From: a bacterium
GTDB lineage: Bacteria > Verrucomicrobiota > Verrucomicrobiia > Limisphaerales > UBA11358
Length of the DNA stretch: 64,000 nt
Reading direction: 5' to 3'
NCBI GenBank assembly: GCA_021780375.1
Contig: JAJXYT010000111.1
Location: 10,809-74,808 of the forward strand
Shown here: piece after piece, positions 1,141 through 22,796 of the stretch
Position numbering within the stretch: position 1 is the first letter of the stretch
How the letters are laid out: each line of letters begins with the position of its first letter
Position numbers and translations under genes: made by a program
The notes under the pieces: generated by a model
What the model was told of the DNA's origin: nothing
Seen by the model: the letters and a program-made list of their open reading frames with translations, nothing else
Database searches by the model: none

Positions 1141-1165
1141 AAAAAACGCGACGGGGGCGTCGCGC
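1141..1165 (-). terminator. GC hairpin plus U-tract (minus strand), about 140 nt upstream of the otsA start
   Basis: On the minus strand, GCGCGACG-ccccc-CGTCGCG is followed by TTTTTT. A second GCGACG..CGTCGC hairpin lies at 1175-1190. No CDS ends here. Confidence 0.45.
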
Positions 1166-2999: not shown

Positions 3000-3063
3000 G
3001 TCGTAAAACATTAAATAAAATACGTGAACCCTCAATGACAGCCGGGGCTTGGATTAGTAGAAT
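3000..3063 (+). promoter_or_regulatory. promoter module copy 1 (conserved activator-site-like block, -35 ATGACA, -10 TAGAAT)
   Basis: GTCGTAAAACATTAAATAAAATACGTGAACCCTCAATGACA, then 17 nt, then TAGAAT. The ATG of the next gene is at 3085. One of five near-identical modules. Confidence 0.7.
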
Positions 3064-3084
3064 ACGATTATTAAATCAGCGTTT

Positions 3085-3894
3085 ATGTTTGTGAGACTAT
3101 CACGTGCTTATAAAACGGCTGCTTCTCCTTTGGGCTTCACTTTGATTGAGTTGCTGGTGGTGATCGCGATTATCGCGCTCCTGGCCAGCATGCTGCTCCC
3201 CGCTCTTGGCGCGGCCAAAATGCGGGCCAAGTCGATCGCCTGTCTCAGCAACCTGAAACAAATGTCCCTCGGCAGCCAGCTCTACGCTGGCGACGATCCG
3301 GCCGGCGCCCTCACCGGCGTTGACCCCGGCAATTGGGGCGACGACGACGTTAATTGGCTTTACCCGCAATATGTTAAAAATTTAAAGGTGTTCGTATGTC
3401 CTGCGACGCAGAATTTTATCCGGAACCAGCCGGTCGTGCTCGATCCCAAAACCTACGCTGCTTACATCCAGCGATTGCACGGGAATCAGACTTATATTCC
3501 CGATCTGCAAAACACCGCTCTGGGCACAGGATACTTGCCGGGTCATAGCTACGACGTTTATGGAAATATGACCTCGCACATTCGTAAAACAGAAAACGTG
3601 GTCGGACACTATATTCTGGTTGCGCCAGGCAGACCCAAGGCAGCGCTCATGTTGCTCAAGGGGATGGAAGTGGGTCCCTCCAAGATCTGGGTGTTTCTTG
3701 ATAATCTGGACCGGATTATTGGCGCGCCGCTGGCGTATCCGGACCGGCCAACCCGGTGGAGCAACCACGGCGCGGCTGGGGATAATGTGTCGTTTGCAGA
3801 CGGGCACGTGGCCTTCATTAAGGCCACGGACTGGGATTATGCATACGTCATCGGTAATGATTACCCGGCGCCCGGCAATAATACTCCCAATTAA
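3085..3894 (+). CDS. DUF1559-type protein with prepilin N-terminal cleavage/methylation domain (pseudopilin-like)
   Basis: N-terminus [25 protein letters not shown], then ...CLSNLKQM. C-terminal H-X9/10-DG-like [10 protein letters not shown]. Confidence 0.85.
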
Positions 3895-3898
3895 CAGC

Positions 3899-4285
3899 AT
3901 GACCCGGGATTTTAGTCGCAGCCCCAATCGTCGCGTGCTCGCTGCTCTGCTGGCAGCGGTGGTCGGCGTTGGCCTCTGCGGGTGTTCAAAGTCGGGACCC
4001 AAGGACTGGGAAGTGAACGGCTATTTGGACACGGTAACCGGTTACAAGTTTTACACAGACAAGGACGTTTTTGCCGAAAAGAGCCCTGTGCATCCTGACG
4101 ATCGCTTTGTGCAGGTGCTTGTTTTTATCTATCCCCGGGGTAATAGCGTTATTGCCGCTCGCGACGCCCAAAACCTGGAAGATCCGCAAACGCATAAAAC
4201 GCCGGTGAGTGTTCGCTATCCGACCGAAGCTGAACTGAAGGCCTGGGGCGCCGTGAAGGCAACCCGGCAGGAAGTGTGCAATTGA
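3899..4285 (+). CDS. small lipoprotein, hypothetical
   Basis: Internal ATG of ORF 3620..4285, 5 nt after the upstream stop. MTRDFSRSPNRRVLAALLAAVVGVGLCGCSKSG carries a lipobox (L-C-G-C). Confidence 0.65.
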   Translation: MTRDFSRSPNRRVLAALLAAVVGVGLCGCSKSGPKDWEVNGYLDTVTGYKFYTDKDVFAEKSPVHPDDRFVQVLVFIYPRGNSVIAARDAQNLEDPQTHKTPVSVRYPTEAELKAWGAVKATRQEVCN

Positions 4286-4480
4286 TCGGTCGGCAGGTGT
4301 CGGGTGATTCATCTCCTTTCCGCCGGTAGCAAGCCGGTAAAGGAATTTTTCCCGGGGCACGACCTAAAACCTTAATATCTTACTTTTGAATAATCAGCCA
4401 AAATCAGCCGCTCAATTGTTTGTCCCACAGTTTATGCGAAAAAAAGGGCTTTTTTTAACGCTGGCGTTTGCCCTGGCGAA

Positions 4481-4544
4481 GTCGTAAAACCATAAATAAA
4501 ATGCGTGAACTCTCAATGACACGGCCGTTCTGAGTCAGTAAAAT
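4481..4544 (+). promoter_or_regulatory. promoter module copy 2 (-35 ATGACA, 17 nt, -10 TAAAAT)
   Basis: GTCGTAAAACCATAAATAAAATGCGTGAACTCTCAATGACA is almost identical to copy 1 over 41 nt. The next ATG is at 4589. Confidence 0.7.
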
Positions 4545-4588
4545 ACAATGACGTTAAACCACTTGAAACATCCAAACCACTCAACTCT

Positions 4589-6634
4589 ATGAAAGCAGAC
4601 TTCGCACCATTGTTGACGATGATTGTGGTCGCTTGCGCCACAGTCCTCCCTGTCCCGTACGTGCAAGAAGCCCAGGCAGCGCCGTCGGTTGTCGGTCTCT
4701 GGCGGTTCGATGAAGGCAGTGGAACCAATGTCTTCGATTCATCAGGTTTGGGAAACAATGGGACATTGATGGGTGAGAACGGTAATGTTCCGACGTGGGT
4801 CGCGGGCCAGGCAGGCTTCAACAGCGCCCTGCGTTTCACCAACAATGGTGCCGACCATGCCTATGTGAACATCCCTGGTGCCAGCTCACTGATGATCGGC
4901 CAGACGGCGACCAATGCGTGGACGATTACGTGCTGGGCATATGAAGAATCAAATGGCACGAGTAATTTTGTCTCGAGTTATGGGCGAATGTTGACAACGG
5001 ATGACGGAGCGGCATTCCAGTTGGAATCCGGGGCGGTGGGGGACGCGGAATTGTACACCTGGAGTGAGATGACTCCCTCCTGGCAGATTGCCTGGGGCGT
5101 GGGTTCCAGTGTCGCCCCGCTTCTGGATCAGTGGGTCCATTGGGCCGTCGTTTATGATGGAACCAACATTACCATCTATCGCAACGGCAACCAGGGTCCC
5201 AACGGTGGGGTTGCTTCCCAGCCGGTGACGGCACCGCTGGCATTCCCCGGTTACACGGGAGCAGTGGTGATCGGTTCACAACTGGATCAGGCGGGCACCG
5301 CCAATTGGAACGGGATGCTGGACGACGTGGCGGTGTTTAACGGTGCTTTGACGCAATCCCAAGTTGACACCGTGATGACCAATAATTTTTCTCCATTCAT
5401 TGGTGGCCCGGTCAATTTTGTCAGTGGGCCACAAAGCCAGACGGTGTTTCAAGGCGCCAGCGTCAGTTTCAGCGTCGGTGTGGCCGGACAGGCGCCCTTC
5501 CAATATCAATGGTATTTCAACGGAACCAACCCGCTGTCGAGTGTCAGCAACCCGACGGCGACGAACGCGACGTTGGTGCTGTCAAATGTCCAATTGGACC
5601 AGTCGGGGACTTATTCGGTGGTCGTCAGCAACTCTTTGGGTAGCGCAACCAATCCGGCGGTTACTCTTACCGTTTTCCGGCCTCAACCCCTGGTCGGGCT
5701 CTGGCGGTTTAATCAAGGCAGCGGGACCAATGTCCTTGATTCATCAGGCCTGGGGAACAATGGGTTTATTGCCGGCGAAAATGGCAATGTCCCGGCCTGG
5801 ACCACCGGCCAGGCGGGATTTGGTGACGCTCTGCGTTTCACCAATAACGGCGCCGACCATGCCTATGTCGTTATTCCCCCCAGCGGTACCTTGCTGATTG
5901 GCCAGACGGCCACGAATCCCTGGACCATCACCGGCTGGGCTTATGAGAGCTCCGACGGCACGAGCAATTTTGTGGCGACTTACGGACGGATCCTGGTCAT
6001 CGACGACGGCACGGCATTCCAATTTGAATCAGGGGCATCCGGCGATGACGAAATGTACACCTGGGCGCGCGCCAATATAGCATGGCAAATCGGTTGGGCG
6101 GGATTTTCCGGTGTAACGCCGCTCTTGGATCAATGGGTGCATTGGGCGGTGGTTTATGATGGAACCAATATCACTGTTTATCGTAATGGAAACCAGGGTC
6201 CCAACGGCGGAATGGCCTCTCTCCCGCTGAGTCCCCCTTCACCACTTGGCGGCTACTTCGGATTCCAGGATGGCATCCTGATTGGTTCTGAGCTGGCACA
6301 ATCCGGTAATCGCACCTGGAACGGCATGTTGGACGATGAGGCCGTATTCAACGTCGCGTTGTCCCAGGCCCAAATTCAAACCGTCATGGCCGGCAATTTC
6401 AGCGCTTTCATGACGCAGCCTCCGCCGCAGTTGTCCATCGGCAACAGTGCCGGGAACATTATGCTCAGTTGGCCGGCGGCCCCCCAGGCCGCGTACCAGC
6501 TTCAATCCACCGCCAGCCTGGCTCCGTCCTCGTGGACCAGCGTTACCAACTTGCCGGTGCAAAATGGCAGTGCGCTGACCGTGACTCTGCCGGGTAGTTC
6601 GGGAACGCAGTTCTTCCGTCTGATGGGACAATAG
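4589..6634 (+). CDS. secreted protein: two LamG/concanavalin-A-like lectin domains, an Ig-like domain and a C-terminal ...FFRL module
   Basis: Signal peptide ...VPYVQEAQA. Two ~177-aa units (GLWRF.EGSGTNV.DSSGLGNNG...LDQWVHWAVVYDGTNIT.YRNGNQGPNGG) flank an I-set-like segment (FQYQWYFNG...SGTYSVVVSN). The protein ends QFFRLMGQ. Confidence 0.85.
   Translation: MKADFAPLLTMIVVACATVLPVPYVQEAQAAPSVVGLWRFDEGSGTNVFDSSGLGNNGTLMGENGNVPTWVAGQAGFNSALRFTNNGADHAYVNIPGASSLMIGQTATNAWTITCWAYEESNGTSNFVSSYGRMLTTDDGAAFQLESGAVGDAELYTWSEMTPSWQIAWGVGSSVAPLLDQWVHWAVVYDGTNITIYRNGNQGPNGGVASQPVTAPLAFPGYTGAVVIGSQLDQAGTANWNGMLDDVAVFNGALTQSQVDTVMTNNFSPFIGGPVNFVSGPQSQTVFQGASVSFSVGVAGQAPFQYQWYFNGTNPLSSVSNPTATNATLVLSNVQLDQSGTYSVVVSNSLGSATNPAVTLTVFRPQPLVGLWRFNQGSGTNVLDSSGLGNNGFIAGENGNVPAWTTGQAGFGDALRFTNNGADHAYVVIPPSGTLLIGQTATNPWTITGWAYESSDGTSNFVATYGRILVIDDGTAFQFESGASGDDEMYTWARANIAWQIGWAGFSGVTPLLDQWVHWAVVYDGTNITVYRNGNQGPNGGMASLPLSPPSPLGGYFGFQDGILIGSELAQSGNRTWNGMLDDEAVFNVALSQAQIQTVMAGNFSAFMTQPPPQLSIGNSAGNIMLSWPAAPQAAYQLQSTASLAPSSWTSVTNLPVQNGSALTVTLPGSSGTQFFRLMGQ
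4688..5218 (+). repeat. LamG unit 1 of an intragenic tandem duplication
   Basis: Aligns with 5690-6220 at DNA and protein level; roughly 70% amino-acid identity by eye. Confidence 0.8.
5690..6220 (+). repeat. LamG unit 2 of an intragenic tandem duplication
   Basis: See 4688-5218. Confidence 0.8.
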
Positions 6635-6650
6635 TTGCTTTTGTGAAGGA

Positions 6651-6683
6651 CGAGGGGGGCGATTGAATTCGCCCCTCTCGTTT
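6651..6683 (+). terminator. hairpin plus short T run between the LamG gene and the next gene (possible attenuator)
   Basis: CGAGGGGGGCGA-ttgaa-TTCGCCCCTCTCG followed by TTT. The stem is imperfect. Confidence 0.4.
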
Positions 6684-6700
6684 AAACAGTGATTGTATGT

Positions 6701-9409
6701 ATGACAAAATTTACGGGTGTAAAGGGTTGGCAATCCGCGCAGAACGTGTATCCGCGAAGTAATGCAGGAATTCGCTTCCTTCCTTTTAGAAAAACGTGGT
6801 GGTTGCTTGCGGTGGTCACGGTTTGTATCAAGGTCCAGGCGGCCACCAATCTCCCTTCTTATTACGCCCATCCAACCGAATTGGATTCGAACGGTGTCAT
6901 TGCGCCCTGGTATCATGGGCTGAACGGCCAGTTGGACGAACGTTTGCGCATTGCGGTGGACGTCTATAAGCGTTATCCGTGGGTGGACAAACCCAAGGCG
7001 GTGATGGCGGCGCCGGACTTTGTTTATAGCTCCCACTGGAGTACCAAACCGGATGGCACCATTTTAATGGCCCCGACCAGCGACTGGATGTGCGGTGATT
7101 TGGCTCAACGCGCCTGGAGCATCATCAAAGGCCTCACGGCTTATTACCAATACAGCGGCGATCCGATTGCGTTCGTCTATATCCCGCGCACCGTGGATTA
7201 CATTTTGGATTACGGGTTGACCGATAAAAACGCCGACTGGCCGCTGTTTCCCATCAGCACGCCGACACGGGGAAAAGCCTACGGCAAATGCGATCCATCG
7301 GGTCGGAACCAGCTTGACCTCTGCGCCATCGTTGGCATCGAGGTGCTCCGAGCCTATAAGCTCACCGGCAATCCCCGCTACCTTCAAATGGCGGAACATT
7401 GGGGCGATGTGTTTGCCGCCAAGGGTCAGTTTAACGATCCGGATATTTCTCCGTGGAATCGTTATGTGGACCCGTCCGTCGTCGGCTGGTCTGACGTCCT
7501 TACCGGCACGACGTCGATCATTGTTGATTTTTTGGATGATCTGATCCAGATGGGTGACACCGGCAAAGAGGGCGCAATTCTCAAGGCGAGAGATGCCGGG
7601 AGACGTTTTTTAAATGAACGGATGCTGCCCGCCTGGTGGGTGGATGACACCTGGGGACGAACTTATTGGGATTGGGACAATCCGATGATGTGCGGCATGG
7701 TGGCGATGTGCGCCGACCATTTCCTGAAACATCCCCAAGCCTATCCCAACTGGCGAAACGATGTGCGAAACATGCTTTCCTTGCTCTGGAACCGCAACTG
7801 CGCCGCCCCGGATTCGTTCGGTGACGTGTATAGCGGCGCCTGGGCGTTTCCCGAATCCTCGGTTTGCTGCGGCACTTCGCTTTCTTACAACCAGTACACC
7901 GCCGGCCCCACGCTGCTCCACTACGGCGCGCTGGCTCACAGCGCGTGGGCCGCCGAAATCGGGCGGCGCATGATGCTCATGGCCACTTACGACAGCCTTC
8001 CCAATGGCATCGTCAAAGACGGTTTGTTTGGCGATCAAGTTGCCACGATCGACTGGTCAAACCTGGCTCACCCGTGGCCGTTGTGTCAGGTGATGGCCGC
8101 CATTGCGTGGCTGCCTGAAGATTTCGCTCCGAACCGCGAAAACCATATTGTCCGTTCCTCCTCGGTCGTGCAGAAGGTCCTTTATGAAAAGGGCAGGATT
8201 GCCTACACCACCTTTGATGCACCGCCGGGCGTGCAGGAAGTCATGCGGCTGGCGTTTTGTCCTGAATCGATTCGAGCCGATGGCCGCCGACTTAAGGAAC
8301 GTTCTGCCCTGGATGCCAGCGGTTATACGCTCATTCCCTTGTCAAACGGCGATTGGCTGGTTGCCGTGCGCCACGACGGCTGCCGGGACGTCGAAGTGAC
8401 CGGAGACGGTGATCCACAACAGGTTGCCAACGTCGATGACCACGCGTTCGCCTTTAACGGCGCGTGGACCGTGGTGAAAGACAGCGGTGCGCCGCATGGC
8501 GCCTTCCGATCGGCAGATCAATCGGGCGCGATGATGACTTTCCGGTTTTCCGGCAATCAAGTGCGCTTGCTGGGCGTGGTCGGTCCCGAGGGCGGCTGGG
8601 CGGATGCCTTTATGGATGGTGTGAAACAACCGACCCTGATCGAGTGTTGGAATCCTGCCGTGCGACATGAACAGCCGATTTTTATCAAGAGTGGTCTGAC
8701 CCAAGGCCGGCATGAATTGAAAATTGTCGTGCGCGGCGAGAAAAATCCTCTGGCGCGCGGCGCTCAAATTGGAATCGAGTCCGCCCAGTTTTCCGCCGCG
8801 ACCGGCGACGCCGGTTTCGGCTCCGGTGGCGGTCCGGCCGGCCCGCAGCGGCTGATCTTTGGTTACACCCGGCGGCACGATTATATGGACTCGAAGGGGA
8901 ACACCTGGCGGCCCGGCACCGAGTTTGTCGCCCGGGTGGGAGCGGACGTGGATACGGTGGCGCGCTGCTGGTGGCGGGACCGCCGCAGCATGTATATCGG
9001 TGGAACTCCGGACGAAGAAATCTACCGATATGGCGTTCATGCGCCGGAGTTTTGGGTGAATCTCACCGCGGCGCCGGGCCATTACACCGTGCGTTTGCAT
9101 TGGGCGGACACGCCCGAAACGCCGTGGGTCGAGCGCGCAGGAACCAATTGGGAAACGATTTCACGTCCCACCACGGTGCTCATCAATGGCAAAACGGTGA
9201 TTGAAGATTTGAATGTGCGGGACAAGGTGGGGACGTTCCACGCTTACACTCGCGAATTCAAAGACGTCGAGCCGCAAAACGGAATTATTGAATTGCGGTT
9301 CAAATCCACCCCCGATCACGAGGCAATGATTCAGGCGGTGGAGATCATTCCTGACAAAAACGGCGAGGAGCGCAAGTCCGCCCGTCCCTCAGGAAACCCG
9401 CGGTTATGA
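6701..9409 (+). CDS. large secreted protein: N-terminal unrecognised alpha/alpha-barrel-like region, CBM-like middle, C-terminal malectin-like domain
   Basis: Signal-like [17 protein letters not shown]. The C-terminus ([10 protein letters not shown]...[19 protein letters not shown]...INGK.V.EDL) is malectin-like. The N-terminal ~560 aa are paralogous to 17536..19278. Start chosen at the first ATG (track starts at GTG 6689). Confidence 0.75.
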
Positions 9410-10215
9410 GAGCCAAAATCGGCGTCCGTTCTTCGACGGCCGGGTCAGCTTTCACGCTGATCGAGTTGTTGGTGGTCATCGCCATCATCGCGATTCTGGC
9501 CGCCATGCTGTTGCCGGCGCTTTCACGGGCCAGGAGCAAGGCCGAGCAAATCTCTTGTCTCAATAACCTGAGGCAGATTGGAATTCTCATGCAACTCTAC
9601 ACCGACAGTCACAACGACATCTTCCCGGCACACCGCAATCAGGATATTAACAACAACAATGTCAATATCTCGATGACCAATTGGTGGGGCACCGCCTTGC
9701 TGGCCATGGCCAACAACTCGTCGCAAAGCAATCTCTTTCATTGTCCCGCCCTCAAAGGACGGAGGATCGATGCGGGAGTGGCCTGGTCGTGGAAGTTTGA
9801 TCCTCATTTTGTCGGTTACGGATATAACAATTATTTTCTTGGCTTGCACCCGTTCCTGGCTACCACCTTGCTGGTGGGCGGAATCCGTTTTGACACGGCG
9901 CCCGATTTCAAGCGAAGTTCCATCCACCGTCCCTCGCAGACACTTGAGATTGCCGACTGCATGCCGGCATCGGGCAACGCGGCTTCTTTGAACTGCTGGA
10001 GTTCAGATTGTTGGTGGCCGTATTCGTCCCACACCGGCCTTCAGGGCGTTGATACGTACCGGCATTTCGGGGTGGGAAACATTGTGTTCACCGATGCTCA
10101 TGCCGAGGCGCGCAAGGACGCAAATATCAACCCGCCTGTGGATCCGGCTTCGGCAACCGTCCAGGCACTGACCAACTGCCGATTTTGGGATCCGTTGCAG
10201 AGGTCCACTCGTTAG
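9406..10215 (+). CDS. DUF1559-type protein with prepilin N-terminal cleavage/methylation domain (pseudopilin-like)
   Basis: [26 protein letters not shown]...CLNNLRQIG, with C-terminal [17 protein letters not shown] start/stop overlap with the upstream gene. Confidence 0.85.
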
Positions 10216-10248
10216 CCCTTTTTATTTTAACCAACCACCGTTAACCAC

Positions 10249-11775: not shown

Positions 11776-11780
11776 TTCAT

Positions 11781-13016: not shown

Positions 13017-13190
13017 AGTTTAATTGAATACCGATTGCCAATCCCGTACGCCGCCGCGCCTGGAAAACGCGCGTGCGGGTGACCGGAATCTTAATGAATT
13101 CCGGGACAAGCCGCTAAAATATTTTACGCCAGCGGTCTTTGCTTCGGGCGTTTTTCTCAAAATCAAGGGTATTCACGACAATTCTTCCAT

Positions 13191-13232
13191 GTCGCAAAAG
13201 TTTAATGGAAAAAACGCGAAATCTCAATGACA
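13191..13232 (+). promoter_or_regulatory. promoter module copy 3 (no convincing -10 at the expected spacing)
   Basis: GTCGCAAAAGTTTAATGGAAAAAACGCGAAATCTCAATGACA. CAAAAG lies 17 nt downstream, where the other copies have TA.AAT. Confidence 0.55.
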
Positions 13233-13387
13233 ATCATTCCAAACTACGGCAAAAGAGCAACAAACCTTGGTTGCGGCGGGTGCTTGTTTCACTGGGTGAA
13301 TAAACTGAATAAAGATTTTTATCACGAAACGCTTGCCACTCTTATGGATGGCTCCTTGATTGCCGGATGGAAGTCGGTCTCAGTTCC

Positions 13388-13643
13388 ATGAACGTTCCTG
13401 AATCAAGAACCGAAAACCCAGGCGGCCACCTTGGTTTGCAGGAGCGGCATCACCAAGAGCTTTGGCAATGTGACGGTATGAAATGACGCGCAACTTGAAG
13501 TGCGCAGCCGTGAGGTTCACGTATTGGTCGGCGAAAGCGGGGCCGGCCAAAGCACGTCAATCAGGATTCTGGCCGGGGTTTACACGGAATTTGAAGGCCG
13601 GATTGAAATCGGCGGCCGGGAAGTCCGTCCGCGCCAAGACCAG
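13388..13643 (+). pseudogene. relic of the N-terminus of a sugar-type ABC transporter ATP-binding protein
   Basis: The frame reads ...[65 protein letters not shown]. There is an in-frame TGA at 13479-13481. The Walker A Lys is Gln (GESGAGQST vs GxxGxGKST). The only ATG (13388) is in another frame. Similarity stops at the GH116 start. Confidence 0.7.
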
Positions 13644-13645
13644 GT

Positions 13646-16600
13646 ATGCGAAAATGTAAATGCTCCGGCCCGTGTGCAGCTCCGGCCGGCGATCTGACCC
13701 GGCGCGAATTTCTAGCCATGATGGGCGCGGCGACGGGCGCGATGCTGGTGTCGGGTTCCGCGCGGGCCGTCTTTGAACTTCCCGAAAGCGACTGGAAACA
13801 ATGGCAGCAAACACTTTTTGAGACGGCGCCCTCTCGACGCTACCTCTCCCATGTCCATACGGATGCGAGGATGCATCTGGGCGGCATTGGCACCGGCAAT
13901 TTTGAAATCGGCGCGGATGGACAGTTGACGACCTGGCAGTTGTTCAACACGTTGCGAGACGGGCAGATTCCCTTTTATTTCTGTGTCAAGGCCGGCAAGG
14001 TGGCGAAACTTTTGCAGACGGCGGGCGGTCCGGATTGGCCCCGCGTCCAAAAAAACGAAATGACCGGCGAATATCCTCTGGCCAAACTGCTCTTCCAGGA
14101 TGGTGAATTGCCGGTGCAAGTCGAACTGGAGGCGTTCAGTCCGTTTGTCCCGTTGGACGCTGATACATCTTCGTTGCCGCTCGCGTTGTTCCATTTCCGG
14201 GTTCACAACCCGACCAGACAAGCGCAGGTGGTCTCACTCGGCGCCCTGCTCCTGAATCCCGTGGGCTATGACGCCAGCGGGGAAATCCATGGGAATTCGC
14301 ACCCGAACTTCGGCGGGAACGTGAACGAAGTTTACTCTGAAGATCAAACCACAGGCCTGTTTTTACGCGCCGAACCCGGCAATGAACCCACGCTGGACCG
14401 CACCCTTTGTCTCTATGTGCCGGATACCTTCCAGGAACTCAAATTGTTATCCTTTGACCGCCCTGAGAATCTGAAAATCAATATCCTCGACACCCAAACT
14501 TTGGCCACGCGCAACGTGGCGGATTCCAACGACGTCGTAATCTGGCTGGACGACACCTCGACCGCGATTACAGTGGCTTGGTTGCGTATGGTTTTTGAAA
14601 CTACGCGAGCGGGAGGCACTTTAATCTTCTCCGGTCGCACGATGCCGTTGTTAAGCGCCTATGCGACGGTTACCGGTGGCAAGCCGCTCGACCGGGCCGC
14701 CTTGCGGCCGGATGTTGTGTTCGAGGATTTCGAGCAGGGTTACTCCAAATGGACGGTGGCAGGCGAGGCGTTCGGGCGGGAACCGGCCCACGGCACCTTG
14801 CCCAACCAACAGCCGGTGTCCGGTTTTTCAGGCAAAGGTTTGGTTGACTCCCGCCTCGATGGCGATCAAACCACCGGCAAGCTCACCGGCCGGACTTTCA
14901 CCGTTGAGCGCAACTTTATCTGCTTTCGGGTCGGCGGTGGACATTACCGGACAACCGGGATTCGTCTCGTGGTCGGAGGCAACGTGGTCCGCGCCACGTC
15001 GGGCAAGGACGACGAGCAGCTTGAGCCGGCATTTTGGGATGTGCGAGAGTTTCTCGGCCGTTCCGCGCACATCGAAATCGTGGACAATCAAACCGATGGA
15101 TGGGGCCATATTAACATTGACCAGATTGTCTTTGCCGACTGGCCGGGTGACCGCGAACAGTTGGAATTATTGGACGAGTTGTTGCCGATCTGGTTCGAGG
15201 GAGTGCAAGAACAGCCGTCCAGGTCTGACGGCCTTGGTCAGGTTGCTTTTCAAAAGCTGGCACTGCGTCCGGGAACTCAGAGAACCAGCTTAAGGAATGA
15301 ATCCGTGGTGTTCACGCGCCGGATGGGTAACGGCCAGGTGGCCCTGGTTGCCGGCCAATTTCTGGATGCGGCCCGTCTTTATTCAATCCCGGCACGGCAG
15401 ATGGCCTATTCGATACTGTGTGAGCTGGCGGGCGCCAGGTATGTCGAGCAGGAAGGACAATCAGCGAAGGCGCCCGGCTTCGGGACGCTGTCTTTGGCGA
15501 CCACCGGTCCGAACGCGACTGGATTGGCCCATTTTGAGGAATGGACTGAAGCCTGGGACCTGTTTTCAAAGCAAGGACATTTTCTCGCAGCCGAGGCCGC
15601 CCGGCCGAATTCCCCTACCGCCGCCGGCAAAAGCGTTCAGGGTGCGCTGGCCACGACCATTTCGGTGCCGCCGGGTGGGACCGTCGAGATTCCTTTCTTT
15701 TTTGCCTGGCATTACCCGAACAGCTATTACCCGGAGACCGGAGAGCGGATTGGATGTCATTATGCGACCCGATGGACTGACGCCCGTGCGGTGATTCGTT
15801 CGGCGGTTGCGAATCATAAGTCCTTGCGCCAAAGAACCGAACTGTACCACAAGACTTTTTACGACAGTACCTTGCCTTACTGGCTGCTCGATTGTCTTAC
15901 GGCGAATTCAGGAATCATGCGTCATATCGGCGTCGTTTTCCGGATTGCCAATCACGACATTTACGGGTGGGAAGGATCCAATGGCTGTTGCACTCCCACC
16001 TGCACGCACGTTTGGGGTTACGAGCAGTCGCTCGCCCGACTTTTTCCAGATCTCGAAAGAGACCTGCGGCGGATTGACTTCAAACATCAGCAAAATCCTG
16101 ACGGCGGCATCAATAATCGCACCCTGGTGCCTTCGCCGCCTCATCCCACCGGGGAACACCCTTTTGCGGACGGCCACGCGAGCTGCGTGCTTAAGGCTTA
16201 TCGCGAGGCGCTGAATTCCACCGACGAATCGTTCTTCCGAGACTGCTGGCCACACGTGAAACGCGCAGTCGAGTATCTCATCCAACGTGATGCCAAAGCG
16301 GCGCACGGCCAGCCTCGGGGCATTTTGCAGGATGATCAATGGTGCACCTACGATGAAGCCTTGCATGGCGTCACCACTTTTATCAGCGGCTACTATCTGG
16401 CCGCATTAAGAGCCGGAGAAGAATGGGCGCGGCGCATGAATGACACGGCAACCGCCGGCCGTTTTCACGGCATTTTTGAGAAGGGACAAAGCAAGCTCGT
16501 CGAATGGTGCTGGAACGGAGAGTATTTTCAGCAACATCTTCCGGATTATCTGACCCGTCCGGGCGAAGTGGGACCGGGTTGCCTGTCCGATCAATTGCTC

Positions 16601-17395
16601 GGACAATGGTGGGCGCACCAACTGGGTCTTGGATATATTCTGCCCAAGGAGAAAGTGGTTTCCGCCTTGCGATCTATTTTCAAATACAACTTTAAATCGG
16701 ACCTGACGGGGTGGCGGTTTATGCCGCGCGCCTTCGCCGGGGCGAAGGACAAAGGACTTATGGTTTGCACCTGGCCCAAAGGCGGACGTCCTGCCGACGT
16801 GATGCTATATGCCGACGAGGTCTGGACCGGCATCGAATATCAGGTGGCGTCCCACATGATCTACGAGGGGCTACTGGAAGAAGGGCTGGGCGTTGCGAAG
16901 GGGGCGCGCGATCGTTATGACGGTGTTCCCCGCCCGCCCATGCCACGCAATCCCTGGAGCGAAATCGAATGCGGCGGTCATTACGCCCGCGCTATGTCTT
17001 CCTGGTCCCTGCTCCTGGCACTCTCGGGTTATCATTGCGACGGCCCGGGGTGCGTGCTTGGCTTTTCGCCACGATATAATCCCGACGATTTTAAATCATA
17101 CTTCTGCGCGCCGGAAGGCTGGGGCAACTTCACCCAAAGATTGGAGGGCGACGCTCAGCAAGTCCGGATTAACGTGAACTGGGGAATCGTGCGCGTGAAA
17201 ACCCTGTGTTTGGCGGCGGCAAATAATTCCAGGCCCGCAACGGTTGCCGTATTCGCCAACGGCGAGCGCAGGTCGGCAGATGTCCAGGTAAAGGATGGCA
17301 CTGTGAAAATTGACTTTGGGGAACCGTTGGTGGTTAAGGAGCGTGAAGAATTACAGATAACCATCTCTTACGGCAGGATGCGAAGCGCAGTTTAG
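13646..17395 (+). CDS. GH116-family glycoside hydrolase (GBA2-type beta-glucosidase-like) with Tat signal and a large lectin-like insertion
   Basis: Tat motif [17 protein letters not shown]. The GH116 N-domain block is [24 protein letters not shown]. The catalytic-domain block is [27 protein letters not shown]. The inserted DFEQGYSKW...GKLTGRTF...[11 protein letters not shown] segment is a concanavalin-like jelly roll. Confidence 0.8.
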
Positions 17396-17421
17396 CCCGG
17401 TAACCAGAGGGTTTCGAGCTG

Positions 17422-17487
17422 GCTGCAAAATCTTAATGAAAGAAACGCGAACCCTCAATGACACGCACCAGCCTGTTCACTTAGAAT
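17422..17487 (+). promoter_or_regulatory. promoter module copy 4 (-35 ATGACA, 18 nt, -10 TAGAAT)
   Basis: GCTGCAAAATCTTAATGAAAGAAACGCGAACCCTCAATGACA, then TAGAAT at 17482-17487. Confidence 0.7.
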
Positions 17488-17535
17488 GGGTTTAATGGAA
17501 TTCGAGCCGTGGTGCGGGCAAAAGCAGAGGTACCC

Positions 17536-19278
17536 ATGAATATGACAGCGCCGGTTTACCACCGGGATCGCAAGTTTCGGCGATACCGTTATTTCAAAAC
17601 CAGCGCCTGGAGTGGAATCCTGGTTTGGTTCCTGAGCGCAACTATGTTGCTGGGGGACCAACTCTTCAGCCACCAGGTCCGACTGGATGATCAAGGCAAA
17701 CTCCTGAGCTGGGTTAATTCCGCTGCTCCCTATGACCAGATCCTGCGAACGGACTGGGCCATGTTCGAGAGCATTCCGGTCCAGCCCGATGGTTATCGGA
17801 CCTATTTTACTTATCCGGAATTCAACGGCCCCAATGATCCCTCGAAACCCCTCTTTGAGGGCCGTCCTTGGGCGCACAATCCGGCGGGAGTGTTCACCAT
17901 GCTTACCGATTCGGCCGTCCTCTATTATGCTTATAGCGGAGACGAGGTGGTCATGGATCGGGTTCGGGAGATGCTCGATCACATGCTGGAGGACGGGACC
18001 AGCAGTGTGACCGATTCCTGGGCCCAGGTCCCCTATGCCAGTTCGGATGCGGGCAATCCGGTTTATCGCGGCGGCACGGACACGATTTATTGTGACGGTC
18101 ACAAGCCCTGCGGGCGCGGCGATGGGCTGGGATACCTGGAACCGGACAAGGTTGGCGAACTCGGATGTGCCTACCTCCAATATTACGAATTTTCGCTGAA
18201 CAAGAAATATCTCCAGGCCGCCATACACTGCGCAGATGCGTTGGCGGGGCATGTGCGGCCGGGAGACGAGTCCCATTCGCCGTGGCCGTTTCGGGTCGAT
18301 GCCCTGACCGGCGCGCAGATTCGCGAGCAATACACCGCCAACACCATCGGGCCCATTCGCCTCTTCGACGAGCTTCTTCGCTTGCGGCAAGGCAATCAAA
18401 AAGCCTATGCCCGCGCCCGAAAAATGGCCTGGAAGTGGTTGATGAAGTATCCGATGGCAAACCAGATCTGGACACAATATTTCGAAGACGTGCAGATCTA
18501 CCCCAATTATCGCATCAACCGGAATCAATACTCGGCGCTGGAAACTGCTCGTTACCTGCTCCAGCACCCGGAAATGGACCCGCAAGCGCTCGCCCACGCG
18601 AAGGGGATTCTTGATTGGGTCACCCGTTTTTTTGGCAAAGATTCGAGGACTATGGCCGGACTTCGCGAAAAGGGGCTGCAATGGGGAGCGAGAGTCCTCT
18701 CCGAGCAGGTCAACGACATGGATAAAATGGCCAGCCACACCGCCCGCTACGCTTCGGTTTGTGCGCTTTATTACGCGGTCACCGGCGATCGCGACTACCG
18801 GGAACGGGCGTTCCGTTCCTTCAATTGGGCGACGTATGCCTCGCGTGAAGACGGACTGGTGATCGGAGGCGGGACGGATCCAGCCACCAGTTGCTGGTTT
18901 TCGGATGGCTATGGCGATTACCTGCGCCATTTTGAACGGGGCCTGGCCTGCGTGCCCGAATGGGCGCCGTCAAAGGAGCCGCATCTGCTGGGATCAACTT
19001 CGGTGGTACGCTCCGTTCATTATGGCAGCAACCGGATTGATTACCTGACGTTCGATGACCAGTCACGCGAAGTGCTGAAATTGTGCGAGCCACCGTCGGC
19101 CGTTCAGGCTGGCCATAAACTGTTGCACCGTGTCAATAATCTCCGGAGACACACCGAAGGCTACACCTCGGAACCGAGCAGGGGTGGCGGATTTGTGGTT
19201 CGCATTCAGCACAAGCGTTCGGGAAGCGTCTCGATCCAATTCGGAAGTACCGGGGCCGCGACCAGCTCCACAAAGTAA
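17536..19278 (+). CDS. hypothetical exported protein, paralogue of the N-terminal region of 6701..9409 (alpha/alpha-barrel-like)
   Basis: Shared blocks include STSVVRSVHYGSNRIDYLTFD vs [21 protein letters not shown] and LYYAYSGDE vs AYYQYSGDP. Start moved to ATG 17536 (GAGG 8 nt upstream) because the predicted -10 at 17482 leaves GTG 17509 very close to the transcription start. Confidence 0.7.
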   Translation: MNMTAPVYHRDRKFRRYRYFKTSAWSGILVWFLSATMLLGDQLFSHQVRLDDQGKLLSWVNSAAPYDQILRTDWAMFESIPVQPDGYRTYFTYPEFNGPNDPSKPLFEGRPWAHNPAGVFTMLTDSAVLYYAYSGDEVVMDRVREMLDHMLEDGTSSVTDSWAQVPYASSDAGNPVYRGGTDTIYCDGHKPCGRGDGLGYLEPDKVGELGCAYLQYYEFSLNKKYLQAAIHCADALAGHVRPGDESHSPWPFRVDALTGAQIREQYTANTIGPIRLFDELLRLRQGNQKAYARARKMAWKWLMKYPMANQIWTQYFEDVQIYPNYRINRNQYSALETARYLLQHPEMDPQALAHAKGILDWVTRFFGKDSRTMAGLREKGLQWGARVLSEQVNDMDKMASHTARYASVCALYYAVTGDRDYRERAFRSFNWATYASREDGLVIGGGTDPATSCWFSDGYGDYLRHFERGLACVPEWAPSKEPHLLGSTSVVRSVHYGSNRIDYLTFDDQSREVLKLCEPPSAVQAGHKLLHRVNNLRRHTEGYTSEPSRGGGFVVRIQHKRSGSVSIQFGSTGAATSSTK

Positions 19279-19323
19279 CAACCGAATTCTGAAAACGGGG
19301 ATGGAATGCGGGTTGGATAACCG

Positions 19324-21480
19324 ATGAAAACAAACCGCCGACAATTTCTCCAGGCCACAGCTGCCACCTTGCTGGCCTTGGGAGTCTGGCCAGCCCAAGC
19401 CGCCCAAATCCTGGCGCCATTCCGGTTTGATCCTTCCCAGGACATCATCCCGGCTCCCGATGACCCGACCCAGTGGCCGGCCTTCCGGGATGCTTTGGCT
19501 CGTTGGCGCGATCAAATTCGAGCCGATCTGAAATATAATGATGTTCTCTACCGCCGGCCGGATTTAAAGTGGTCGGCTTCGAATTATTCCTGCGGTTTTG
19601 TCATGGTCTGGGATGAGCAGTTTTACGATTACCGGTCCGGACGTTATACGGTGGATGATTTTCTGAATGAAGGAGACCGGGAATTTGGCGGCTATGACAG
19701 CATCGTGTTGTGGCAGGCGTATCCCCGCATCGGAGTGGATGGGCGCAACCAGTTTGATTTCTATCGCGATTTGCCCGGCGGCTTGCGTGGATTGCGACGC
19801 GTTGTGCGCCGGTGTCATCACCGTGGCGTCCGGGTTTACATTGACTATAACCCGTGGGACACAGGCACACGGCGGGAACCCGAATCAGATATAGCTGCAC
19901 TGGTCGGGATGGTACGCGTGCTGGAGGCGGACGGGATTTTTCTGGACACATTGGATAAGGGTGGCGCCGATTTCCGCGCCAGGCTCGATGCCGCGCGGCC
20001 GGGCGTGATACTGGAAGGTGAAATGGCCCTGCCGGTTGAAGCTCTGGCAGATTACCTTGCCTCCTGGGCGCAATGGTTCGACGACAGTTTCGTGCCGGGC
20101 GTGCTGCGGAACAAATGGATCGAGCGGCGGCACATGCAACACCAAATCCGGCGCTGGGACCGCGATCACACAGGCGAACTCCACTCGGCCTGGATGAATG
20201 GAAGTGGAATGTTGGTCTGGGAAAATGTGTTTGGTTCCCTGGTGCCCTGGAACCAGCGCGATCGCTCAATCCTCCGCGCCATGCTGCCGATTCAACGCCG
20301 GTTCACCGGCTTGTTCAGCGGCGAGCACTGGACACCCTGGGTGCCGGTTCGGCCAAGCGGTGTGTTCGCCTCGCTATGGGAAAACCAGGACCTGCGGCTT
20401 TGGACGCTGGTCAATCGGACTGGAAAAAACATCGAAGGAATGCTGCTCCAGGTGCCAGCGGTGCCGGAACACCGTTACTTCGATCTGGTGGCCGGCAAGG
20501 AAATCCAACCCGAGGGCAGGGGTGATAACGTCCTGCTGTCCGGCGTGATGCCAGCCCGCAGCGTCGGCTGTTTTCTGTCCGGCCCGCCCGGGAAGCTCGG
20601 AGCTGGTTTTAAACCATTTTTAAGGCGGCAGGCGCGTTTGGATACCGGGAAAAATTTCCGTACCACGACCCCCGGAGCATCCACACAACTCATTCCCGTC
20701 AGGCCCAGCCGGGCTCATTGGCGTGCGCCGGCGGGTATGGTGGAAATTGCCGCCGCCAGGGTGGAATTGAACATCGAAATGCGCGTGCGGGAATGCGGTT
20801 TCTATGATTCCACGCCGCCGGGCGGAGACGTTTATAATTTTCAAACGCGGCGATTTTCCCGGAAGGTTTCCTTGCCGCGATTTGCGATGGATGAGGCGCT
20901 GGTGACCAACGCGCAGTTTGCCGGGTTTCTGGCTGCCAGCCGGTACCGGCCAGGGCATCCGGAAAATTTCCTGAAGCATTGGCCCGACGGTCGGCTGCCA
21001 TCAGGCAGGGAAGATCATCCGGTTGTTTACGTGGATCTGGAAGACGCACGGGCTTACGCGAGTTGGGCCGGCAAACGGCTCCCGACCGAGGACGAATGGC
21101 AATACGCGGCCCAGGGCCTGGACGGCCGGAAATATCCCTGGGGCGGACATTGGGAAACGGGACGATGCAATGACGGAACAACCGGTTCAACGACGCCGGT
21201 TAAAGCGTTCCCATCCGGGCGATCGCCCTTCGGTTGTTATGATATGTGCGGCAATGTCTGGGAATGGACGGAAAGCGAACGCAGCGACGGCCGAACCCGG
21301 TTCTGCATTATCCGGGGAGGCGCCTTTTTTGCTGCCAAAGGGTCGAATTGGTATGTGGATGGTGGTCCGCGTCCGGCCAACTTCGCCACGAAGCTCATCT
21401 TGATGTGGCCGGGGCTGGATCGGTGCAGCACGATTGGATTTCGTTGCGCTGCTGACCTGGCCGCCTCTGCCCGCTCGTAA
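19324..21480 (+). CDS. Tat-exported fusion: glycosidase-like TIM-barrel-like N-region plus C-terminal FGE/SUMF1-type domain
   Basis: Tat signal NRRQFLQATAATLLALGVWPAQA. The C-terminus VTNAQFAGFL...HPVVYVDLEDARAYASWAGKRLPTEDEWQYAAQG...YPWG...GCYDMCGNVWEWTES...RGGAFF matches the FGE-sulfatase domain pattern. Confidence 0.75.
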   Translation: MKTNRRQFLQATAATLLALGVWPAQAAQILAPFRFDPSQDIIPAPDDPTQWPAFRDALARWRDQIRADLKYNDVLYRRPDLKWSASNYSCGFVMVWDEQFYDYRSGRYTVDDFLNEGDREFGGYDSIVLWQAYPRIGVDGRNQFDFYRDLPGGLRGLRRVVRRCHHRGVRVYIDYNPWDTGTRREPESDIAALVGMVRVLEADGIFLDTLDKGGADFRARLDAARPGVILEGEMALPVEALADYLASWAQWFDDSFVPGVLRNKWIERRHMQHQIRRWDRDHTGELHSAWMNGSGMLVWENVFGSLVPWNQRDRSILRAMLPIQRRFTGLFSGEHWTPWVPVRPSGVFASLWENQDLRLWTLVNRTGKNIEGMLLQVPAVPEHRYFDLVAGKEIQPEGRGDNVLLSGVMPARSVGCFLSGPPGKLGAGFKPFLRRQARLDTGKNFRTTTPGASTQLIPVRPSRAHWRAPAGMVEIAAARVELNIEMRVRECGFYDSTPPGGDVYNFQTRRFSRKVSLPRFAMDEALVTNAQFAGFLAASRYRPGHPENFLKHWPDGRLPSGREDHPVVYVDLEDARAYASWAGKRLPTEDEWQYAAQGLDGRKYPWGGHWETGRCNDGTTGSTTPVKAFPSGRSPFGCYDMCGNVWEWTESERSDGRTRFCIIRGGAFFAAKGSNWYVDGGPRPANFATKLILMWPGLDRCSTIGFRCAADLAASARS

Positions 21481-21528
21481 CCGCAGGCGCAACCCCGGCG
21501 GTCGCGGAGCGGTCACCGATTTTAACGG

Positions 21529-21594
21529 CATCGCAAAATCTCAACAGAAAAACGCGATTCCTCAATGACAACCGCCTTCTTTTCGGCAGAGAAT
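21529..21594 (+). promoter_or_regulatory. promoter module copy 5 (-35 ATGACA, 18 nt, -10 GAGAAT)
   Basis: CATCGCAAAATCTCAACAGAAAAACGCGATTCCTCAATGACA. The -10 overlaps the ORF-track start at 21593, so the real start must be downstream. Confidence 0.65.
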
Positions 21595-21622
21595 GACAGA
21601 AATACCGTTACCACAGGTAACT

Positions 21623-22720: not shown

Positions 22721-22796
22721 CAACCGGTTATTTGAAAAATGCATTGCGGTTTGATTCCGTACAGGAATCAGACTGAAATTTCGTTCCCAAGGCTCA

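Follow-up and report, generated by a model that had tools for sequence, protein, structure and literature searches.

The stretch of DNA analyzed here, referred to as the window, is 64 kb long and comes from a member of the Verrucomicrobiota known only from metagenome assemblies. Between positions 3000 and 24428 it carries an island of genes that encode predicted glycoside hydrolases, secreted and pseudopilin-like proteins, and a XylR-family regulator:

3085-3894, + strand: pseudopilin-like protein with an N-terminal methylation motif (DUF1559 type)
about 3905-4285, + strand: small conserved open reading frame (ORF) after the pseudopilin-like gene
4589-6634, + strand: secreted LamG (concanavalin-like) and Ig-domain protein
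6689-9409, + strand: 906-aa protein with a domain homologous to the 17536-19278 product and a C-terminal malectin domain
9406-10215, + strand: second N-methyl/DUF1559 pseudopilin-like protein
10249-11775, + strand: GH172 (DUF2961) enzyme, GH172a; nearest enzymes, alphaFFase1, BACUNI_00161, and a Dysgonomonas gadei GH172
11781-13016, - strand: XylR-family regulator and proposed binder of the module described below; Pfam PBP1_XylR, Peripla_BP_3, HTH_18, and HTH_AraC (AraC-type double HTH)
13388 to about 13640, + strand: pseudogene stump of a sugar ABC transporter ATPase (first ~250 nt of the gene, with stop codons)
13646-17395, + strand: GH116 enzyme with a twin-arginine signal, ExoMA2 (exo-beta-D-arabinofuranosidase) subgroup
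17536-19278, + strand: 580-aa protein with no Pfam family; predicted (alpha/alpha)6 barrel and beta-sandwich
19324-21480, + strand: 718-aa protein with a C-terminal FGE-sulfatase (formylglycine-generating-enzyme-like) domain
21623-22720, + strand: GH172 enzyme, GH172b, with a signal peptide; close homolog of ExoMA1 (exo-alpha-D-arabinofuranosidase)
22797-24428, + strand: fucose-isomerase-superfamily protein; Fucose_iso_N1 and Fucose_iso_C hits weak and below Pfam cutoffs

The earlier note on this DNA divided the island into five operons and moved two start codons. Four of the operons (3085-4285, 4589-11775, 17536-21480, and 21623-24428) stood, and the fifth, 13388-17395, had to be given up as a single reading frame, with stop codons occurring before 13646. 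The starts at 17536 and 21623 are both supported, and orthologs of the gene at 21623 begin at the same MKSS... signal peptide. The former start of the latter gene, 21593, falls within the -10 hexamer of copy 5 of a repeated promoter module. Five copies of this module, 41 to 42 nt long and all on the + strand, had been described, and direct inspection of the sequence located every one of them, each in an intergenic gap ahead of + strand genes:

3000-3040, + strand: copy 1, comprising a distal half-site, a proximal half-site, and the -35 hexamer ATGACA (3035-3040); -10 TAGAAT at 3058-3063; upstream of the pseudopilin-like gene at 3085; orthologous site in one relative's locus (L047)
4481-4521, + strand: copy 2; -35 at 4516-4521, -10 TAAAAT at 4539-4544; upstream of the operon at 4589-11775
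13191-13232, + strand: copy 3, in the divergent gap adjoining the regulator gene; without a good -10
17422-17463, + strand: copy 4; -35 at 17458-17463, -10 TAGAAT at 17482-17487; upstream of 17536-21480; orthologous sites in four relatives' loci (L004, L019, L035, and L039)
21529-21570, + strand: copy 5; -35 at 21565-21570, -10 GAGAAT at 21589-21594; upstream of 21623-24428

When 2 mismatches are allowed, the 19-nt core of the module, ACGYGAWHYCTCAATGACA, matches at five places in the 64 kb, compared with an expectation of 0.01 for shuffled sequence; the - strand has no match. A two-block profile trained on about 48 sites gave the five copies scores of 50.7 to 53.7 bits, compared with a maximum of 10.1 in shuffled windows; this profile revealed no further copy elsewhere in the 64 kb, the next best position scoring 2.0 bits. 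Four mismatches over 41 positions separate copies 1 and 2, in agreement with the 90% identity attributed to them. Each module is composed of two half-sites arranged as direct repeats with a period of 21 to 22 bp (CGYRAA-n2-3-CTYAAT). A half-site is ~16 nt long, and its CGYRAA and CTYAAT boxes are separated by approximately one turn of the helix. The consensus is TCGCAAAAnCTTAAT for the distal half-site and ACGCGAAnnCTCAAT for the proximal one, which merges into a near-consensus -35 element, (A)TGACA.

The hexamer ATGACA matches the -35 consensus at 5 of 6 positions and is followed, after 17 to 18 nt, by the -10 hexamers listed above for copies 1, 2, 4, and 5, exactly as the earlier note had proposed. 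Those of copies 1, 2, and 4 also match at 5 of 6 positions, so that these three copies (10/12) are the top three sigma-70-like matches between positions 2500 and 22000; copy 5 scores 9/12. Among 31 non-redundant sites, matches to TATAAT at 4 or more of 6 positions numbered 17 at spacers of 17 to 18 nt and 0 to 4 at any other offset. Copies 1, 2, 4, and 5 therefore have the hexamers, the spacing (16 to 18 nt), and the position upstream of a gene that define a sigma-70-type promoter. Copy 3 departs from this pattern at the -10, for which the sigma-70-like scan found no good hexamer, and its orthologs are likewise poor there. The earlier note listed no -10 for copy 3, an implicit concession. With transcription starts predicted near 3070, 4551, 17494, and 21601, the module would cover about -70 to -30.

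Five near-identical copies within 19 kb, two of them 90% identical, might instead represent a dispersed repeat without a regulatory role, whether an element resembling REPs or MITEs or a duplicated piece of intergenic DNA. Elements of the REP and MITE type are present in many copies, in both orientations, and with no fixed relation to genes, and they are often palindromic, a description that the module does not fit. The same module lies upstream of orthologous genes in 24 other Verrucomicrobiota-like species genomes. All of the ~46 true copies in these genomes are intergenic, never inside genes, and have the orientation of an ORF beginning 18 to 155 nt downstream. There are 1 to 5 copies per genome, grouped on one or two contigs, and a 6.5-Mb chromosome contained a single exact match. 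The module is retained at orthologous positions across the 24 species while the flanking sequence diverges; sites orthologous to copy 2 precede LamG/Ig orthologs in 11 loci, and those orthologous to copy 5 precede GH172b orthologs in 10. Further, the module keeps a fixed distance to the -10 hexamer, contains an internal direct repeat rather than a palindrome, lacks terminal inverted repeats, and had no match in an Rfam search. A dispersed repeat is thus extremely improbable, and the claim that the module is a promoter element held in all 24 genomes. The pattern used for the genome scan fixes CTCAATGACA, so the invariance of this segment among the scanned sites is partly by construction; the same invariance was still seen in a sample selected by the regulator protein, in which up to 3 core mismatches were allowed.

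Comparison with relatives also accounts for copy 3. Relative to locus L023, ~3.5 kb encoding the ATPase, a permease, and an RbsB/YtfQ-like binding protein is missing after the stump. In the ancestral arrangement, copy 3 served as promoter for a CUT2 sugar ABC transporter operon with GH116 after it, and the transporter has been deleted in this genome. The binding protein of the relatives' transporter is of the furanose type (RbsB/YtfQ-like).

The earlier note named the product of 11781-13016 as the cognate regulator. Residues 10 to 398 of this protein align with E. coli XylR (4FE7; E value, 6e-51), making it a full-length homolog with an N-terminal LacI/GalR-type PBP fold and a C-terminal AraC-type double HTH. 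Among 43 motif-bearing 8-kb loci, 16 contain an ortholog of the regulator, and in all 16 a divergent module lies beside it. The gene on the other side of the gap varies among these loci (ABC ATPase, GH172b, FucI-like, and others). A reciprocal sample was assembled from metagenome loci picked by similarity to the regulator protein alone. In this sample, 24 of 28 orthologs carry the module in the divergent upstream gap and 2 carry a degenerate variant, and none of three paralogs 31% identical to the regulator has one. These associations, together with the homology to XylR, uphold the assignment and suggest that the 11781-13016 protein almost certainly binds the modules.

A different factor, with the XylR linkage being coincidental, could be, for example, a global regulator or the OmpR-type response regulator at 25869-26636, which is encoded with its kinase (24566-25795) immediately downstream of the island. 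OmpR/PhoB-type regulators, too, bind direct repeats beside the -35. Their boxes have a period of 10 to 11 bp, though, and the 21- to 22-bp period and bipartite ~16-bp half-site of the module suit monomers with an AraC-type double HTH. Homologs of the kinase and response regulator were found in none of the 43 motif-bearing 8-kb loci, a span that more distant homologs would escape, whereas every XylR ortholog in those loci adjoins a module and selection by the XylR protein alone recovered the module in most cases. We therefore regard another binder as very unlikely.

E. coli XylR binds ~37-bp operators, IA and IF, at the xylAB and xylFGH promoters, each with two direct repeats (gaAa-a-a-AAT) beside the -35, and its binding depends on xylose (Song & Park 1997; Ni et al. 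2013, PMC3561964). XylR-type dimers are antiparallel and able to loop DNA between sites, and Ni et al. proposed that one dimer bridges two sites (PMC3561964). The system in the window resembles that of E. coli in the domain architecture of the regulator; in an operator of ~37 to 42 bp whose two direct repeats lie beside or run into the -35, with occupancy suggested by the co-occurrence described above; in the shared A-rich and AAT boxes, which keep their register, both half-sites fitting nnAa-N5-AAT; and, in relatives, in the linkage of the regulator to a CUT2 sugar ABC transporter with a promoter predicted to be under its control. It differs in phylum and in the sequence of the regulator (~30% identity), in having five target promoters rather than two, and in a cargo of secreted glycoside hydrolases, lectin-domain proteins, and pseudopilin-like proteins in place of xylose isomerase and kinase. 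A further difference is the -35, which approaches the consensus in the window and is poor in E. coli, and the effector here is probably a sugar other than xylose. In class II activators of the AraC/XylS family (AraC at I1-I2, RhaS, XylS, and MelR), bipartite half-sites of ~17 bp form tandem direct repeats with a period of ~21 bp, and the proximal repeat lies over the -35. The tandem bipartite half-sites of the module, of which the proximal one overlaps the -35, share this layout, although the N-terminal domain of those activators is a cupin or of another kind and their mode of dimerization differs. The view of the conserved ~35 nt as a class II-type site is thus upheld as far as layout goes: it is a tandem direct repeat abutting the -35. 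By analogy with these systems, the regulator is predicted to activate.

We propose that a single local regulon, run by the XylR-family protein and with a D-arabinofuranose-glycan cargo, has the five modules as its composite operator-promoters, a reading to which we assign a probability of roughly 0.78. A sugar held by the PBP-like domain would lead the regulator to grip both half-sites through its AraC-type double HTH. The bound regulator would then aid RNA polymerase at the adjoining -35 in a class II-like manner, as E. coli XylR does. The units turned on would be 3085-4285, 4589-11775, the stump with 13646-17395, 17536-21480, and 21623-24428, and their output would be the breakdown and uptake of D-arabinofuranose-containing glycans. 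Relatives would import the released sugar through the CUT2 ABC transporter deleted in this genome.

The strength of the hexamers allows a second possibility, in which the XylR homolog is a repressor or dual regulator whose sugar-free form sits on the half-site abutting the -35 and blocks a competent promoter until sugar releases it. The site does overlap the -35, and the combined score of 10/12, from ATGACA and TAGAAT or TAAAAT, exceeds that of the usual activator-dependent hexamers, including those of the E. coli xyl promoters (PMC3561964). Against repression, activation is the mode of action of family members whose direct repeats end near -35, E. coli XylR needs xylose in order to bind (PMC3561964), and the -10 is weak at copies 3 and 5 and at many orthologous sites, as expected if the polymerase requires help. 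We consider repression unlikely and favor activation by the sugar-bound regulator.

The identity of the sugar is suggested by two of the enzymes. The best PDB match of the GH116 enzyme is ExoMA2 (8IC6), with an E value of 1e-94 compared with 1e-33 for beta-glucosidases. In the alignment it retains the equivalents of all four key ExoMA2 residues, the catalytic E431 and D557 and the Araf-specific H446 and R483, whose roles (Glu431, His446, Arg483, and Asp557) are taken from PMC10509167. GH172b is about 58% identical to ExoMA1 (8IC8; E value, 9e-117). At the position of ExoMA1 Asn253, a bulky residue that keeps fructofuranose out and is replaced by Gly in alphaFFase1, it has Asp, which is compatible with Araf specificity and not proof of it. 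To our knowledge, these nearest relatives of the GH116 and GH172b enzymes are the only characterized exo-beta- and exo-alpha-D-arabinofuranosidases. Because both enzymes are so close to them, the regulon probably targets D-arabinofuranosides, for example, actinobacterial cell-wall D-arabinan. The furanose-type binding protein of the relatives' transporter and the fucose-isomerase-superfamily gene in the same predicted unit as GH172b favor this substrate as well. GH172a has its nearest counterparts among enzymes of the fructofuranosidase type, which counts against a D-arabinan substrate. The effector would probably be a released monosaccharide, with D-arabinose as the leading candidate.

The roles of several other products are less well defined. 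The protein at 22797-24428, some homologs of which bear the NCBI name fucose isomerase, is a possible D-arabinose isomerase. Because of its predicted (alpha/alpha)6 barrel and beta-sandwich fold, the 17536-19278 product is a candidate glycoside hydrolase; the barrel family that it forms with 6689-9409 has over 1,800 homologs and no Pfam family, and neither protein has a PDB sequence match. A Pfam search of the island, with E values up to 1 for these two proteins, found no GH183 (DUF4185) endo-D-arabinanase, and no sugar or pentulose kinase was found within 3000-24428; both results weigh against the proposed substrate, as does the sub-threshold level of the isomerase hits.

A D-arabinose-induced D-arabinan locus with GH172, GH116, an ABC transporter, and an isomerase has been described in Microbacterium arabinogalactanolyticum (Shimokawa et al. 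2023, PMC10509167). The island resembles that locus and its Dysgonomonas gadei counterpart in its GH172 and GH116 exo-D-Araf-ase homologs, the conserved GH116 active-site signature, the isomerase, and, in relatives, the ABC transporter. Unlike them, it lacks a GH183/DUF4185 endo-arabinanase and a kinase, and it contains two paralogous (alpha/alpha)6-barrel proteins along with the LamG/Ig, FGE-domain, and DUF1559 pseudopilin-like proteins. The transporter of the relatives is a CUT2 monosaccharide type rather than the SBP_bac_8 oligosaccharide type. A regulator and operator are defined here, whereas the PMC10509167 text consulted defines none for those loci.

The control logic of the regulon is ordinary, and the organism and its likely substrate are little studied. 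What is new is the homology of the GH116 and GH172b enzymes to D-arabinofuranosidases, which points to the probable substrate of the regulon. We tentatively suggest, as a possibility that is still rather doubtful, that the regulon gives uncultured soil Verrucomicrobia a previously unrecognized means of harvesting glycans that contain D-arabinofuranose, such as the actinobacterial or mycobacterial cell-wall arabinan in necromass. If so, the XylR homolog would be the first protein in its family to sense D-arabinose. The (alpha/alpha)6-barrel, LamG/Ig, FGE-domain, and DUF1559 pseudopilin-like proteins would fill the missing endo-acting and capture steps, and a new glycoside hydrolase family would stand in place of GH183 among the coregulated proteins.

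The five blocks that the earlier note had described at 3000-3040, 4481-4521, 13191-13232, 17422-17463 and 21529-21570 (copies 1 to 5) were confirmed by direct inspection of the sequence, with all five on the plus strand. Each copy is intergenic and lies ahead of a plus-strand open reading frame (ORF). When the window was searched for the 19-nt core ACGYGAWHYCTCAATGACA at a tolerance of two mismatches, only these five places matched (mean of 0.01 in shuffled windows). We also scanned the 64 kb with a two-block profile made from approximately 48 sites. The five copies scored 50.7 to 53.7 bits, the next best position scored 2.0, and the maximum in shuffled windows was 10.1; this gap indicates that the window holds five copies and no weaker sixth. 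Ahead of 9406, 10249, 19324 and 22797 and beyond 26 kb, the profile detected no weaker module above noise, and a window search with CTCAATGACA, one mismatch allowed, yielded additional matches at chance level only. The genes of the island, with their Pfam-based assignments, and the gene pair that follows it are listed here.

3085-3894, plus strand: N-methyl pseudopilin-like protein
4589-6634, plus strand: LamG/Ig protein
6689-9409, plus strand: malectin-domain protein
9406-10215, plus strand: N-methyl/DUF1559 pseudopilin-like protein
10249-11775, plus strand: DUF2961 protein, equivalent to GH172 (GH172a)
11781-13016, minus strand: regulator with PBP1_XylR, Peripla_BP_3 and HTH_18
13646-17395, plus strand: GH116
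17509/17536-19278, plus strand: protein without a family
19324-21480, plus strand: FGE-sulfatase-domain protein
21593/21623-22720, plus strand: second GH172 (GH172b)
22797-24428, plus strand: protein with weak fucose-isomerase matches
24566-26636, minus strand: histidine kinase and OmpR-type response regulator, after the island

The proposal that the modules end in sigma-70-type promoters agreed with a consensus scan of positions 2500 to 22000, in which copies 1, 2 and 4 were the top three matches (ATGACA, a spacer of 17 or 18 nt, and TAGAAT or TAAAAT; 10 of 12 positions). Copy 5 matched at 9 of 12 positions (ATGACA-18-GAGAAT), and copy 3 had no convincing -10 element. An extracytoplasmic function (ECF) sigma promoter (GAAC ... 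CGT) was dropped, because a -10-type CGT is not conserved at the required spacing in the five copies. No Rfam family matched anywhere in the window at gathering thresholds, so a known RNA element was also set aside.

When the promoter-proximal 23 nt were slid upstream, the best or joint-best self-match fell at an offset of 21 to 22 nt in every copy except copy 5, whose self-match was slightly higher at 27 nt. The module is thus a tandem direct repeat, with the consensus TCGCAAAAnCTTAAT for the distal half-site and ACGCGAAnnCTCAAT for the proximal one. In both half-sites, the boxes CGYRAA and CTYAAT are spaced by about one helical turn, and (A)TGACA continues directly from the proximal half-site. 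Beyond the AAT box, the distal half-site is weakly conserved and the proximal GACA is nearly invariant. Because conservation past AAT is strong only at the proximal half-site, we infer that GACA is retained for RNA polymerase rather than for the regulator. If transcription starts about 7 nt past the -10 element, which would be near 3070, 4551, 17494 and 21601 for copies 1, 2, 4 and 5, the module would occupy roughly -70 to -30. Escherichia coli XylR binds sites of about 37 bp, composed of two direct repeats (gaAa-a-a-AAT) adjoining the -35 element, only with xylose, and one antiparallel XylR dimer has been proposed to bridge two sites (PMC3561964). Compared with that operator, both half-sites of the module fit nnAa-N5-AAT in the same register.

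One entry in the five-operon map of the earlier note, 13388-17395, needed correction, as it is not a single ORF. The frame from 13388 contains stop codons before 13646, where GH116 starts. Comparison with L023, the locus of the closest relative (regulator 95% identical), accounts for these stops. There, three genes separate copy 3 from GH116; the first encodes a 523-amino-acid CUT2 ATPase of the xylG/rbsA/araG type, and the others encode a permease and an RbsB/YtfQ-like binding protein. The alignment of the window with L023 runs through the module and ~250 nt into the ATPase gene and resumes at the last nucleotides before the GH116 start, indicating that about 3.5 kb of an ABC transporter has been deleted (compare L023 2462-6095). 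The deletion is clean and joins the copy 3 promoter to GH116. What remains is a stump (13388 to ~13640), and the start codon of GH116 lies 413 nt past the module. The uptake system may truly have been lost, or the deletion may be an artefact of assembly.

Both proposed changes of start codon are supported. The ATG at 21593 falls within the -10 hexamer, and distant orthologues align only from residue 10 or 11 and begin with a signal peptide (MKSS...), which places the start at 21623. A start at 17536 gives 580 amino acids, the length of the database orthologues, and has GAGG 6 nt upstream of its ATG. An ORF at 3620-4285 overlaps the end of the pseudopilin gene, and only its C-terminal ~100 to 125 codons are conserved (in L043, L016 and L047, three of the loci compared); the true gene probably begins near 3905, as a small ORF without a known family. 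Elsewhere in the window, 28739-32431 (minus strand) encodes a 1,230-amino-acid protein in which an MFS transporter is fused with an acyltransferase and an AMP-binding enzyme; it resembles LplT/Aas (lysophospholipid transport and re-acylation) and is unrelated to the regulon.

A scan of one genome from each of 185,579 species with the pattern AAAA-N14-15-CGYGANNNCTCAATGACA gave 51 loci. Eight of these, in unrelated taxa, lack the distal half-site, and we regard them as chance hits. The other 43 carry the whole module (~46 sites in 24 genomes, nearly all labelled Verrucomicrobiia or Verrucomicrobiota). Every true site has a co-oriented ORF 18 to 155 nt downstream, and the downstream genes are orthologues of the targets in the window: pseudopilin (copy 1 type), LamG/Ig (copy 2), sugar ABC transporter ATPase (copy 3), the orthologue of the 17536 protein (copy 4) and GH172b (copy 5), with FucI-like (L025) and GH116-like (L012) genes in addition. 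With a relaxed core, a few variants appeared at the expected orthologous positions, for example in L004 and L039. A dispersed repeat is an unlikely reading of this pattern, since there are one to five exact copies per genome, intergenic, co-oriented with genes and grouped on one or two contigs (a single copy in a 6.5-Mb chromosome); the module neither occurs in both orientations nor lies within genes nor is scattered genome-wide. At 31 sites whose downstream 35 nt are less than 70% mutually identical, hexamers with at least four of six matches to TATAAT numbered 17 at spacers of 17 to 18 nt, against 0 to 4 at any other offset, as expected of a promoter.

A few of the loci have unexpected features. 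L014, L039 and L043 are labelled Limnocylindrales, L018 and L045 are labelled Bifidobacterium, and all five have the full module. Orthologues of window genes at 76 to 96% identity are found in all but L018, which has a weak LamG-like match only. Because the gene content is that of the same lineage and the labels are of unrelated phyla, these are probably binning errors in public metagenome-assembled genomes. In L031, the LamG/Ig gene downstream of the module (456-3455) gave many overlapping tblastn segments in different registers, a pattern suggestive of repeated domains within the gene, of frameshifts or of a collapsed assembly.

The regulator encoded at 11781-13016 aligns over residues 10 to 398 with E. 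coli XylR (4FE7; E value of 6e-51). Sixteen motif-selected loci contain an orthologue of it (59 to 96% identity), each with a module in the adjoining divergent gap that points away from the regulator gene, and the divergent gene varies among them. For a reciprocal sample, we picked 39 loci from metagenome contigs by similarity to the regulator protein alone and evaluated the 28 that had 200 nt or more of DNA upstream of an orthologue at 65% identity or higher. A full divergent module was present 39 to 356 nt from the regulator start in 24 of the 28 and a degenerate variant in two (L072 and L073); the remaining two (L063 and L077), which are rearranged, had no module. None of three paralogues at 31% identity had one. 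These two independent comparative tests support the earlier note's interpretation, including its choice of regulator, and offer strong, though indirect, evidence that the 11781-13016 protein reads the module. Given this linkage, another regulator is unlikely to be the reader; as for the histidine kinase and OmpR-type pair, no homologue of either occurs in any motif-bearing locus (8 kb each). The good -35 and several good -10 elements would also suit a repressor or a dual-acting regulator, a reading that we consider less probable, as the family precedent and the weak -10 element at many sites favour activation. An activator of this kind is a standard XylR/AraC-type operator-promoter mechanism, and its regulatory logic is textbook. 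What is non-standard is the setting in uncultured soil Verrucomicrobiota, the likely D-arabinofuranoside substrate and the co-regulated proteins of unknown function. Among the matches listed in a literature search on XylR/AraC binding motifs, there was no Verrucomicrobia paper.

Two further elements lie near the regulator gene. Within copy 3, a sigma-70-like TTGAGA-17-TAAACT (13227-13199, minus strand; 9 of 12 positions) is directed at that gene. A functional promoter here would place the regulator gene under autoregulation through occupancy of the module, but this remains speculative, as the other modules next to a regulator gene do not conserve the -10 part. Between the regulator start and copy 3 is a perfect 7-bp inverted repeat, CCGGAAT-CTTAATG-ATTCCGG (13081-13106), whose centre, AATCTTAATGA, is identical to the box of the distal half-site of copy 4. 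Its conservation in L023 is only partial, so that a role as an auxiliary or autoregulatory site is possible, as is a chance origin.

The closest solved relative of GH116 is ExoMA2, the exo-beta-D-arabinofuranosidase of Microbacterium arabinogalactanolyticum (E value of 1e-94, compared with ~1e-33 for beta-glucosidases). The catalytic residues Glu431 and Asp557 of ExoMA2 are conserved, as are His446 and Arg483, which the authors of the ExoMA2 report single out as setting arabinofuranose apart from glucose recognition (PMC10509167). GH116 is longer than ExoMA2 (1,249 versus 867 amino acids), with a long additional region at the junction of the N-terminal and catalytic domains, and its twin-arginine signal predicts that it is exported, unlike the intracellular Microbacterium enzyme. 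GH172b is ~58% identical to the exo-alpha-D-arabinofuranosidase ExoMA1 (E value of 9e-117) and has Asp at the position of Asn253 (Gly299 in alphaFFase1), the residue that blocks fructofuranose in ExoMA1. GH172a is nearer to alphaFFase1, BACUNI_00161 and a D. gadei enzyme. The Microbacterium locus is induced by D-arabinose and comprises GH183, GH172, GH116, an ABC transporter, an isomerase and a kinase (PMC10509167); by comparison, the island has a gene of the fucose isomerase superfamily and no GH183 or kinase. Homologues of this FucI-like protein are 78 to 91% identical, and an identical copy is present on an ENA metagenome contig, as would suit a metagenomic origin of the window. The L-fucose isomerase of E. 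coli also isomerises D-arabinose. The transporter of the relatives is of the monosaccharide type, and its binding protein resembles ribose- and galactofuranose-binding proteins. From the homology of GH116 and GH172b, the FucI-like gene and the relatives' transporter, we give about an even chance to D-arabinofuranosides as the target of the regulon and the released pentose as its effector. In the literature searched, no paper linked Verrucomicrobia with D-arabinan.

The proteins encoded at 17536-19278 and 6689-9409 are paralogous, sharing a common domain at 23 to 25% identity. Neither has a Pfam or PDB sequence match, and assignment to GH183/DUF4185 or another known family was therefore rejected. 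More than 1,855 homologues of the former were counted, and in none of them does a Pfam domain cover this region. The AlphaFold model of the former (pLDDT of 80; pTM of 0.84) shows an (alpha/alpha)6 barrel followed by a beta-sandwich at the C terminus, for which Foldseek returned generic barrel relatives only (GH47, GH127, GH76 and AGE-type epimerases; query-normalised TM-scores of 0.29 to 0.49; identity of 8 to 15%). As a hypothesis, the missing endo-acting enzymes could reasonably be sought in these two proteins, and their family is a candidate new glycoside hydrolase family.

To our knowledge, very little work has addressed the control of transcription in Verrucomicrobiota, and the organisms concerned are uncultured. 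A defined operator, a proposed cognate regulator and five target promoters make up a testable regulon, and the module would offer a sugar-inducible expression tool for the phylum. As a marker of co-regulated genes, the module gives a shared physiological role to large families of unknown function, namely, the (alpha/alpha)6-barrel family without a Pfam model, the DUF1559 pseudopilin-like proteins and the LamG/malectin proteins. We know of only two enzyme types that remove alpha- and beta-D-arabinofuranose, and the module links these families to homologues of both. If the proposed substrate is correct, abundant soil Verrucomicrobia would be consumers of actinobacterial cell wall arabinan, and the regulon would provide new enzymes with which to dissect mycobacterial glycans.
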